Shown here: positions 3,001 to 6,000 of the stretch, one piece after another
Layout: every line of letters starts with the position of its first letter
Position numbering within the stretch: position 1 is the first letter of the stretch
Virus record (IMG/VR): IMGVR_UViG_2579778634_000008
Location: 1-27,188 of that record
Direction: 5' to 3' (one strand)
Source: a virus
Lineage: Duplodnaviria > Heunggongvirae > Uroviricota > Caudoviricetes
Length of the DNA: 27,188 nucleotides
Position numbers: made by a program

Positions 3001-6000
3001 TGAGCACAATGGGCGTAAATGGGACTACGGGAAGTCAACGCAGACGCGTCTTGAGCCGTCGGTGGCGGCAGCGAAAGCGGGGAAACTGCCGGAGGAGTTT
3101 TTCTGGACGGATGCGGACAATAATGACGTACCGATGGACGCTGAAACACTGATTGCTCTGAGTGCTGCTGCAGAGCAGGCGATGTTTACCAAAGGTCTGG
3201 AAATTCATGTCAGACAGCGCACGATGAAAAAAGAGATTGAAGCGCTGAGTGATGCGGAAGCTATACTGGCGTATAAAGTCGGTATCACAGACGGCTGATA
3301 AAAAAGAGAGGGGCAAGCTATAGCCCCTTGCTACAAATCTACAGCTAAATAATACCCTGGTTGAGGCAAATTATTCGGTAATAAAAATTTAAGGAGGCAA
3401 AATAGCCTCCTTCACCCCTGTCAAAGATAAAAAAACGGGGAGTGCGTGCTCACCGAGAGCATGATACTTGTGGTTGATAGTTATTTTTATCCAGCGACAA
3501 AGATATTGAGATGAGGGCGCGGATGCAATACAGGATTTTCGTATTGAATGGTAACTGCTTATTCCGGCAACTGAATGTTGCCCGGCATCTGTAAGTGAAA
3601 AACGGGGAGACGACAGACCCAGAAATTATACATGAGATAGATAGTGGTGCTTTTTGATAAGCAACAGAATGGCTGCATAAAAAGAGAGCAAATAAAACAA
3701 CCATCAAATACAGAATTTTCGTAGGCTGAGGGATTGCTGAAAATAATTTAGTGCGTCCTTCAATGGTCATCAGATTGTGCTGATGTAAACAGTTAAGCAC
3801 AATTTGATTATTTGACTTTCTTCTTTTTGTGACTAACTTCACAATTAAAGATGTAACCGTATACAAATTGTTGATGAATAAAGAGACAGAATAAGTGGCA
3901 GGCCAGTCGTAATGCGGATATCCCTTCGCGGACGTGATATCACCGACGTTATAGTAAGGAAATTCCGAAAAACTTCATATTAAAATTCGGAATTTCTTCA
4001 GGAGTAAGCTCATGAGAGCGGCGAGACATCAGATTTTCTTTATATATCCGATGTTGAACTGTTTTATTTGTATACAGATAATTTTATTAGGGTATACCAC
4101 ATGAGCAAGAAATTTACAAAGACTATTCTTTCTTCTGCTGTTGCCGGACTGATGCTGGTGAGTTCTGGGGCCATGGCTTTAGATATCCCAGTTAAAGACA
4201 GCGATTATTTAATTAGAATAAATGATTCTAACAATGAAATGGCATCTATTATTAATAAAAAAACGAAAGAGGTTGTATTAGGTGCTATAAATACAACTGT
4301 AGGTAGTGTCATGACTTGGAACGTTCAGGATGCTGAAAAAGTTCAAAAAATCATTAACACATTGCCAAGAGAACAACAACAAGCTGGTACACAAATTGCG
4401 ATGCAACGAATTTTGTTCCCGGTTGATTCTCCTAGTTTAAAGCTTGATAAGTTGAAGTCAGGAACATTAACCAAGGCGGATATTGATGCTGTTGTATCCT
4501 TAAAAACAGGTGTTTCAAATGCTATTTCTATCGAAACAGCGCCAGCGTATGTGTCTGCGGTTCGTTCAGGGGGAAACTCTGATGCCGCGCTTGCTGCTGC
4601 TAAACACGGCTCAGGTGCTCTGCAGGAATACAACCGCATCGTTACCAATATAGATAGGTTGAATAAAGACACAACTTTTGCTATCGATGCTAACGGTAAC
4701 ATTACCCTTGATGAAACAGGCTCAGTGGAGCGAGAGTCTGTAAAAAATGTAGTTGCAGCCATTCAGGCAGATACAACCATTTATCAGGAAGAGGATGGCA
4801 GCTATACACTTGATCAGACCGCGCCTGGCAACGTTCGTGTGAATGATGCTGTTGTCAGCCTCGACAACAGAACCCGCAGTAACACCCAGGCTATCCAGAA
4901 TCACTCCCGCCAGCTGCAGGAGCATAACGCACGCCTGAACAGCCAGCAGCGCCAGATTCGTGAAAACCACGAAGAAATGAAACGTGCGGCAGCACAGAGT
5001 GCGGCGCTGTCCGGTCTGTTCCAGCCGTACAGTGTGGGTAAATTCAACGCCACGGCAGCCCTGGGTGGTTACAGTGACAAACAGGCTGTGGCTGTTGGTG
5101 TGGGTTACCGCTTCAACGAGCAGACCGCAGCCAAAGCAGGTATTGCGGCCAGCGACGGTGATGTTTCCTACAACGTAGGTGTGAACTTCGAGTTTTAATT
5201 GCTGACAGTGACATGAAGCATGACGGCAGGCGCAGGACTCTGGTCTGCCGTTTTTCATGGGGCATAAAAAACAGGAAGGTGCTGCGATGAAGGTGATTCT
5301 GGCTACCAGGAATCGCTATCTGGAGTATGGTCTGCAGGCGTTACTGAAGGAACACAGTGTGATACTGGCGAGGGAGTTTTTCCTGCCGGAGAACCGCCGT
5401 TATATCCCGGACTTTGACGAATCCTGGCTGATAATCAGTGATGGCCTGCTGGGCAGGCTGATGCGGTGTATGTTCCAGGGGCGTCATTTTCTGCAACTGG
5501 ATGCGGAGTTGCTCCGTGATGGTGAGCAGATAAGTGATGCCATACACAACGGCGTCTGGACGTATAACAGTGCTGCCCGCCCGCTGACGATGTCAGAGAT
5601 GGTGGTGATGTTCGGTTATGTCTACCGCCAGTCGAGACCCTGTCGCCTTGCCAGTGAAATGGGTATCCACACGAAGACGGTGAATACCTTTCTGTATACG
5701 GGAATGGCGAAAAACGGGCTGTATGGTGTGAGCGTCAGACGGCTTGTTGGTGCCTGATGGCGGTCCTGCCGGATGCGCAGAATCTTCTGATAGTTCAGAA
5801 GGTGCAGATGATGAATAAAGAGAGATGCCGGACAATCGGAAGAAAACGTTACACCACAGGCGCAATGTGCTTCATGCTGTTTGTGTGGCTTGGTGGTGTG
5901 CTGGCTCTTGTTGCTACAGCTGCGGTGGTAATGCAGTAAAAAAAGGGGAGCAACATGCTCCCCGACCAGAAGAAAGACGTTTGATAACAATTAGTGAGTT

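Follow-up and report, generated by a model that had tools for sequence, protein, structure and literature searches.

The stretch of DNA described here, IMGVR_UViG_2579778634_000008 at its full length of 27,188 nucleotides (nt), is called the window throughout, and all coordinates refer to it as a whole. It carries an eib cargo gene, or "moron", of a lambdoid prophage, encoding an adhesin of the trimeric autotransporter type. Our subject is the structured leader in front of this gene, and above all one long hairpin within it, hairpin 2, which recurs with covarying base pairs in each of the leader types that we compared. The gene order of the window (J, tail fibre, DUF4376, adhesin and an orf156-like gene) is the same as that of the prophage P-EibA (AF151091), which reads J, lom, orf-401, orf-191A, stem_loop, eibA, stem_loop and orf-156A. 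The DUF4376 gene matches orf-191A in position and is called "tail fiber assembly protein" in some phage records. Behind the adhesin gene lies a terminator, whose equivalent is annotated as a stem_loop 3' of eibA, eibC and eibD, and then the orf-156-like gene. The eibA upstream region and the window are 92.7% identical over 80% of the query, and related copies occur in 49 of 5,426 complete Escherichia coli genomes, in every case on the chromosome and often several to a genome. A first-pass annotation had taken the gene for a YadA-family adhesin of an Eib locus, carried as prophage cargo beside tail-fibre genes. Its YadA_anchor domain and the P-EibA gene order bear this out, and Pfam matches together with that order confirm a cargo position 3' of the tail-fibre genes. 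With a leader and a terminator of its own, the adhesin gene looks like a self-contained cargo unit (Table 1).

Table 1. Features of the adhesin locus and its neighbours, with window coordinates (SD, Shine-Dalgarno sequence; uORF, upstream open reading frame; MFE, minimum free energy; aa, amino acids)
Feature	Position	Strand	Remarks
J C-terminus	58-960		upstream neighbour of the adhesin locus
Collagen-repeat tail fibre	1330-2709		upstream neighbour
DUF4376 gene	2702-3298	+	Pfam DUF4376, E 5e-21; final late-operon gene before the cargo
AT-rich, indel-rich non-coding spacer	3299-3925		39% GC; only in eibA-type (type A) loci
Two GC-rich terminator-like hairpins	3309-3328, 3391-3412	-	T-runs on the minus strand; terminator scan
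11-nt unit TTCAATGGTCA	3759-3769	+	single copy in the window, 2-3 tandem copies in relatives (type A alignment)
TATAGT, candidate -10 element	3950-3955	+	TA...T invariant in seven types; 5' edge of the module
Hairpin 1, AT-rich	3958-3997	+	arms GAAATTCCGAA / TTCGGAATTTC; the stem_loop annotated 5' of eibA in AF151091
uORF SD, AGGAG	4000-4004	+	7 nt before the uORF AUG; unpaired in the predicted fold
GCUCAUG, 5' strand of predicted long-range helix	4008-4014	+	holds the uORF AUG; MFE and centroid fold
uORF, 30 codons	4012-4104	+	ATG at 4012; TGA 4102-4104 overlaps the adhesin ATG
Hairpin 2, long, with U-rich loop, then U-rich tract	4015-4065	+	kept across leader types
Sigma-70-like match TTGAAC-17-GATAAT	4054-4082	+	consensus scan; alternative promoter
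Palindrome TTTGTATACA	4067-4076	+	nearly invariant in types A-E
Adhesin SD, AGGG	4089-4092	+	8 nt before the ATG; position kept
CAUGAGC, 3' strand of predicted long-range helix	4100-4106	+	holds the adhesin AUG
Eib-locus trimeric-autotransporter-type adhesin, 365 aa	4101-5198	+	YadA_anchor domain
Intrinsic terminator 3' of the adhesin gene	5232-5257	+	terminator scan

Loci of the eib type were drawn from phage and E. coli genome records, from IMG/VR (by DNA pattern and by protein), from a pattern scan of metagenomes and from a scan of genome contigs. The contig scan, made with the stalk and anchor of the adhesin, returned only distant adhesins of Neisseria, Moraxella, Proteus, Edwardsiella and Sutterella, all of them without the leader. 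Seven leader types were distinguished: A, with the window and eibA; B, from phage GER2; C (locus L007); D, with eibC, eibD and eibE; E (L024 and L030); F (L026); and G (L042). For type A, 65 leaders were surveyed. Common to all seven types is a module of ~150 nt that extends from an invariant TAnnGT element to the adhesin ATG and holds, in this order, hairpin 1, a short box, hairpin 2, a U-rich tract, the palindrome TTTGTATACA and, at a distance of 8 nt from the ATG, an SD. The short box resembles GGAATATCCT in most types and reads CAGGAGTAAGCTCATG in type A. Judged by its sequence, the TAnnGT element may be the -10 element of a promoter. In the window the GUAUAC at 4070-4075 is able to pair with a second GUAUAC at 4092-4097. 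The covariance models of Rfam 15 gave nothing relevant at E <= 1 between 3100 and 5400.

Hairpin 2 is the firm result of this analysis. Each leader type folds it at the homologous place from a different stem sequence, such as CCGAAAUACAUCAGAU/AUCUGAUGUAUUUCGG in type C, AGCCGUAA/UUGCGGCU in type D and GCAACG..GUGUCAG/CUGACAC.CGUUGC in type E. We specified the hairpin by hand and then tested it with slid and shuffled controls. In a MAFFT alignment, which is not fitted to structure, 75.4% of the cells pair, against 36-48% when the partners are slid by 1-3 columns, and double-sided changes are seen at 10 hairpin-2 pairs, against 2-4 in the slid controls. None of 500 shuffles of this alignment reached the observed covariation, a count that speaks less strongly for the hairpin than it seems to, because the leader types are related by descent and shuffle counts overstate their independence. 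A covariance model hit each eib locus once, giving 93 hits of which 40 are distinct in sequence, and matched nothing in the distant adhesin loci of other genera. In the alignment made with that model, compensatory changes affect 12 of the 16 hairpin-2 pairs and covariation reaches a score of 0.207, where slid partners give no more than 0.129; these values lean toward the structure of the model, itself built from the MAFFT alignment. As G-U pairs are frequent, the hairpin fits an RNA of the sense strand and not a double-stranded, protein-binding palindrome. In the window it is overlapped by the uORF, has a loop of 11 nt and is followed by UUUUAUUUG.

Flanking hairpin 2, the box is predicted to pair with the start of the adhesin gene. 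When whole leaders of independent types are folded, each MFE structure is closed by a helix in which the box meets either the SD or the AUG: AUCCUG/CAGGAU in type B, CCUCAUG/CAUGAGG in type C, GGAAUAUCCUG/CAGGAUAUCC in type D and AUACCCU.AUGAAA/UUUCAUAGGGUAU in type E. In type A the closing helix would join the region of the uORF AUG to that of the adhesin AUG. The window leader (3957-4125) has an MFE of -40.8 kcal/mol (z -3.87; 1 of 200 shuffles equal), and its centroid fold agrees with the MFE fold. Duplexes between a box and the translation initiation region of its own type average -12.8 kcal/mol, against -9.8 kcal/mol with the region of another type, and 36 of 5040 permutations were as good. 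The SD hexamer has an unpaired probability below the shuffle mean in types B-F (fractions 0.21, 0.06, 0.09, 0.013 and 0.21), while the type A AUG has one of 0.002, against 0.37 with shuffled leaders, none of 150 shuffles being as masked. These predictions lend the long-range helix moderate support, and we regard it as likely, not established. The recurrence of an ATG at about -88 may be a by-product of such pairing, since this ATG is the complement of the CAT preceding the SD (types C, E and F) or the adhesin AUG (type A).

We lean, with modest confidence, towards a model where the structured leader controls the adhesin by masking of translation or by attenuation, the uORF serving as a possible lineage-specific opener. 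The ~150-nt module, common to all eib-type loci examined, would be the controlling element. Its box would pair with the initiation region, that is with the SD in most types and with the adhesin AUG in type A, and the default fold would hide the SD or AUG, possibly together with an attenuating, terminator-like hairpin, leading to low basal expression. Expression would then need something that opens the fold. The model presupposes three things that we infer: a transcript uniting leader and gene, formation of the long-range helix and translation of the uORF.

Besides the shared descent of the leader types, several observations speak against such control. The candidate -10 TATAGT lacks a -35 partner, and in type A hairpin 1 starts only ~4 nt after it. 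For types B, C, D and F, shuffled leaders mask the whole of -13..+3 no less strongly. The register of the helix varies by type, with type A pairing the AUG and not the SD, and RNAalifold, run on the raw alignment of 18 sequences, recovered only the small TTTGTATACA palindrome. Finally, the GC-rich base and U-rich tail of hairpin 2 could belong to a plain insulating terminator.

Such a terminator would halt transcription coming from the tail-fibre operon or from the spacer, and the adhesin promoter would overlap it or lie downstream, at the sigma-70-like match, leaving the uORF and the hairpin outside the adhesin mRNA and with no role in translation. A GC-rich stem base followed by U-rich tracts is present in types A, B, C and E, terminators are also expected to covary, and the depositors of AF151091 annotated the upstream stem-loops with no regulatory role given. 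Type F, however, has no U-tract, and loops of 11-15 nt on interrupted stems of 16 bp are atypical of terminators; the terminator scan did not call hairpin 2. The promoter that this explanation needs is at chance level, the consensus scan having found 2 sites where 4.1 were expected, and neither its -35 nor its -10 is conserved in the other types; transcripts from it would also have a 5' untranslated region of merely 11-12 nt. The preference of each box for the initiation region of its own type, moreover, requires both elements on one RNA. We consider an insulating terminator somewhat unlikely, while taking it as the most serious competitor of a masking or attenuating leader.

The uORF raises a second alternative. 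The first-pass annotation had pointed to a 30-codon ORF with a strong SD, to the ATGA (4101-4104) formed by its stop and the adhesin start, and to a weak SD in front of the adhesin gene. All of this can be read directly from the sequence, at the coordinates it gave; we grade the adhesin AGGG as weak to moderate, and relatives have AGGA or GAGG at the same place. From these features it had proposed that adhesin translation may depend on the leader ORF. In the obligatory form of this idea the adhesin has no effective ribosome-binding site and is translated only through ribosomes that have read the leader ORF, whether by the stop/start overlap or by leader-peptide attenuation. Such an arrangement would suit the strong, unpaired AGGAG of the uORF and its stop codon, which lies on the adhesin AUG or 10 nt upstream of it in 65 of 65 type A leaders. 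It is also uncommon by chance: when the 175-nt leader was shuffled 5000 times with its dinucleotide composition preserved, only 0.5% of the shuffles contained an ATG-initiated ORF of 25 or more codons that had an SD and stopped no more than 15 nt from the main ATG, and 9% had an ATGA-type overlap formed by an ORF of 10 or more codons. An ATG at -86 to -89 is found in four of the seven leader types, A, C, E and F, where it opens ORFs of 25, 22, 25 and 17 codons, respectively.

The survey of leaders nevertheless makes obligatory coupling unlikely. In 60 of the 65 type A leaders the uORF has 25 codons and a TAG that ends 10 nt before the adhesin ATG, and only five have the 30-codon form with the ATGA overlap. 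Four of those five (the window, L134, L087 and L163, the last from strain DETEC-S792) owe it to one extra T (4087/4088), reading TTTATTAGGG instead of TTTATAGGG; the fifth, L115, arrives at the same frame by a different +1 insertion, its peptide rewritten from residue 11. The overlap is thus a minority allele of one base and should not be generalised. The uORF SD is weakened to AAGAG in three type A leaders, and the peptide appears unconstrained, with six amino-acid changes (R2I, R2T, A3T, P13L, M14T and N16S) against three synonymous ones, in addition to the frameshifted variant. As for hallmarks of a leader-peptide attenuator, it has no repeated codons or runs of regulatory codons, and the folds hold no alternative helix. 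Beyond type A, the start codon is missing from types B (GER2), D (eibC and eibD) and G, two variants of type D having an ATG whose reading frame closes after three codons. An SD for the upstream ORF is confined to types A and C; frame and length differ in types C and F, and the type C ORF reads the conserved TTTGTATACA block in another frame. The uORF ATG can, furthermore, be explained by the complementarity to CAT described above. The uORF is real but lineage-specific, not family-wide, and the expectation that it would be conserved upstream of eib genes is largely contradicted by the seven types. The adhesin, for its part, has an SD at a conserved position, and so need not depend on coupling. 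What remains of the proposed dependence is a plausible, lineage-bound role: the uORF has a good SD and the predicted fold would allow it to unmask the adhesin start in type A, while the rarity of ATGA, the lack of conservation and the SD of the adhesin itself tell against dependence as such.

Returning to the masking or attenuating leader, we place the uORF in it as an opener that can only be a lineage-specific addition, because the eibC/D and GER2 types keep the fold without a uORF. In type A the masking strand, which contains an AUG, would have gained a good SD. The AGGAG of the uORF is predicted to lie unpaired in the linker that joins hairpin 1 to the long-range helix. A ribosome that starts there and reads the uORF would open hairpin 2, the long-range helix and the GUAUAC/GUAUAC pairing in its path, and would stop on the adhesin AUG or 10 nt before it, delivering ribosomes to that AUG. 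That translation of the uORF could plausibly unmask the adhesin start follows from the predicted fold, where the segments around the two start codons are paired with each other.

A common pattern of regulation is reported for EibA, C, D, E, F and G, all of which respond to 37 °C, rich medium, static growth and stationary phase, and temperature is named as a major factor in the expression of EibG (PMC5450701; PMC4352079). This might suggest an RNA thermometer, in which a mask over the SD or AUG melts at host temperature and gives more Eib at 37 °C, and the SD or AUG is indeed paired in the predicted folds. Partition functions computed in silico from 20 to 50 °C, however, show the SD (types B-F) and the AUG (type A) hardly opening at all, and thermometers are typically far less stable than the present fold of about -40 kcal/mol, which also counts against one; we consider a thermometer very unlikely. 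We find it scarcely credible that the product of the uORF is a small hydrophobic protein with a function of its own, such as a membrane peptide or toxin: residues 8-25 are hydrophobic and the SD is good, but the peptide is wholly different between types, frameshifted in one relative, absent from types B, D and G and without a family match.

It has been reported that a pGEM construct with eibG and 168 bp of upstream sequence restored chain-like adherence in a deletion mutant (PMC13534694). Both this construct and the like regulation of the Eib proteins are consistent with, though no proof of, a shared control module of such a size. Sandt, Hopper and Hill, writing in J Bacteriol in 2002, reportedly described an IbrAB-dependent activation of eib genes. 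To our knowledge IbrAB are the only known activators of eib expression, by a mode of action that is not known, and we are aware of no link in the literature between IbrAB and leader structure. It is tempting to speculate, tentatively and as a possibility that we place below an even chance, that the eib leader is an undescribed cis-regulatory RNA, combining an attenuator-like hairpin with a start-site mask, that is common to prophage Eib-type adhesin genes and is the shared target of static growth, stationary phase and IbrAB, the uORF having been recruited as an opener in the eibA lineage. Eib adhesins bind immunoglobulins and, in commensal as well as Shiga-toxin-producing E. coli, bring about aggregation and chain-like adherence; the literature describes their regulation by phenotype only (static growth, stationary phase, 37 °C). 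A covarying leader common to mosaic adhesin genes offers a concrete element to mutate, and could explain why the Eib proteins are regulated alike.

The adhesin itself is a mosaic of familiar and unfamiliar parts. It has a signal peptide and, at residues 307-365, a Pfam YadA_anchor domain (PF03895, E 3.6e-16); the anchor matches the YadA anchor structure 2lme (E 1.5e-18) and the stalk an EibD fragment, 2xzr (E 6e-8). Identity to EibA and EibD is 59-61% over the final 145 aa, and the signal peptide also matches, while the coiled-coil stalk is shorter than theirs by two deletions of 14 and 7 residues (21 in total relative to EibD). The passenger, residues 27-220, does not align with the heads of EibA or EibD and holds no Pfam head or stalk domain. 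A monomer AlphaFold model (predicted local distance difference test, pLDDT, 85-90 in the passenger) has short strands followed by helices there; a fold search with the model gave no significant match in the Protein Data Bank (PDB), the sole PDB fold hit being the EibD stalk at E 0.13. Neither Pfam, nor alignment with EibA and EibD, nor the fold search revealed a YadA-like head (left-handed beta-roll) and neck. Relatives of the passenger (4179-4760) form 62 clusters, all the named ones from E. coli. Judged from these comparisons the protein has an Eib anchor and stalk but a different, uncharacterised head, and immunoglobulin binding cannot be assumed for it.

Base composition also changes within the gene. 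The first-pass annotation had noted an AT-rich non-coding stretch at 3299-4011, and at 39.0% GC this stretch is indeed both AT-rich and non-coding, against 54.7% for 1-3298 and 51% for the whole window. The AT-rich block extends further, to ~1.4 kb (3299-~4700), because the 5' 600 nt of the adhesin gene are equally AT-rich (39.7% for 4101-4700, against 53.2% for 4701-5198). Its end roughly coincides with the start of the Eib-stalk homology, and the GC jump near 4700 appears to be a mosaic junction between an AT-rich passenger and an Eib-type stalk. A hybrid leader is seen on the metagenome contig L090 (1595-1722), which is of the GER2 type (B) up to the SD and of the eibC/D type (D) from ...GGATATCCATAATG on. 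Its recombination joint at the ribosome-binding site implies that leaders and adhesin bodies are swapped as modules.

The spacer between the DUF4376 gene and the leader matched neither Pfam nor Rfam. Among 47 distinct related loci it varies by indels of 1, 2, 4, 11, 22 and 121 nt. A minus-strand ORF of 138 aa (3450-3866, TTG start) was considered as a hidden gene and rejected, as it has no family match and indels break its frame in the 47 loci. The leader also shares short, scattered inverted matches with 3689-3868; as these lack colinearity, we attribute them to chance. Just 3' of the 11-nt unit TTCAATGGTCA lies a small hairpin, CATCAG...CTGATG (3768-3785), similar to the top of hairpin 2. 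The two terminator-like hairpins of the spacer would, from their sequence, halt only minus-strand transcription running from the spacer toward the tail-fibre genes, and a minus-strand promoter-like site is present at 3835-3807. AT-rich, horizontally acquired DNA such as this is the usual substrate of H-NS; the first-pass annotation had taken the AT-rich upstream stretch for a likely H-NS-silenced regulatory region, and such silencing, suggested by the AT-richness, may occur.

Several features lie further along the prophage. Downstream of the adhesin, 7742-10747 holds another tail-tip-fibre-like gene, with a Phage_Tail_Tip domain, together with another Ail/Lom gene, and looks like a second cargo or tail module behind the eib unit; the region after these two genes is annotated with Hok/Gef and a small "bacteriocin" in related genomes. 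An ORF of 2,787 aa (14395-22758) has the domains LPD38, LPD5, LPD1 and MuF_C ("large polyvalent protein"), and in strain UCPROB-002 it is the final prophage gene, followed by the chromosomal yfdC. Between this giant gene and an IbrB-like gene is a gene for a SocA/Panacea-domain protein with an antitoxin-like domain (22909-23433). On the minus strand at 23522-25377, two overlapping genes encode a 408-aa protein with PAPS-reductase and DUF3440 domains and a 214-aa protein named "IbrB-like domain-containing" in RefSeq. This IbrA/IbrB-like pair adjoins AntA/AntB antirepressor genes (25574-26365) and is ~19 kb from the eib-type gene; the same arrangement is present in strains G1/2, UPEC-245U and NCTC9112, among others. 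Rfam sRNA-Xcc1 matches twice above its gathering score, on the minus strand at 26244-26329 and 26778-26866 (73 and 69 bits), one match within the 5' part of the antirepressor ORF at 25574-26365 and the other ~400 nt upstream.

Leaders that mask a start or attenuate transcription, and uORFs that unmask it, are well-known kinds of control, and the eib leader can be set beside several of them. Translational coupling by ATGA and the unmasking leader peptides of erm genes likewise place a short ORF with its own SD before a masked start, with a stop on or next to the AUG. The window uORF differs from both: it has no conserved peptide or stalling motif, its overlap is confined to a minority of alleles, and several sister eib leaders keep the same fold with no uORF at all. 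In the ROSE and fourU thermometers and in riboregulated leaders an upstream strand likewise pairs with the SD or AUG, and in the eib leaders this predicted pairing covaries between lineages. The eib fold is much larger than ROSE or fourU and has several helices, with no melting predicted between 20 and 50 °C and no Rfam match.

The closest comparison is with the eib loci of the ECOR-9 prophages P-EibA, P-EibC, P-EibD and P-EibE (AF151091, AF151674-6) and with loci of the eibG type, which share the order of tail fibre, DUF4376/orf-191, adhesin and orf-156-like gene. Signal peptide, stalk, anchor and downstream terminator are alike in the ECOR-9 loci and the window, and the window copy differs in carrying the rare extra T that gives the ATGA overlap. 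Already known from the ECOR-9 eib prophages were the stalk and anchor, the type of locus and the stem-loops on either side of the gene. What appears undescribed, as far as the literature consulted and Rfam show, comprises the conserved and covarying hairpin 2, the candidate mask of the start site and the uORF survey across leader types. The window also carries an IbrA-like and IbrB-like pair, and a prophage that unites this pair with an eib-type gene makes a convenient system in which to test the leader.

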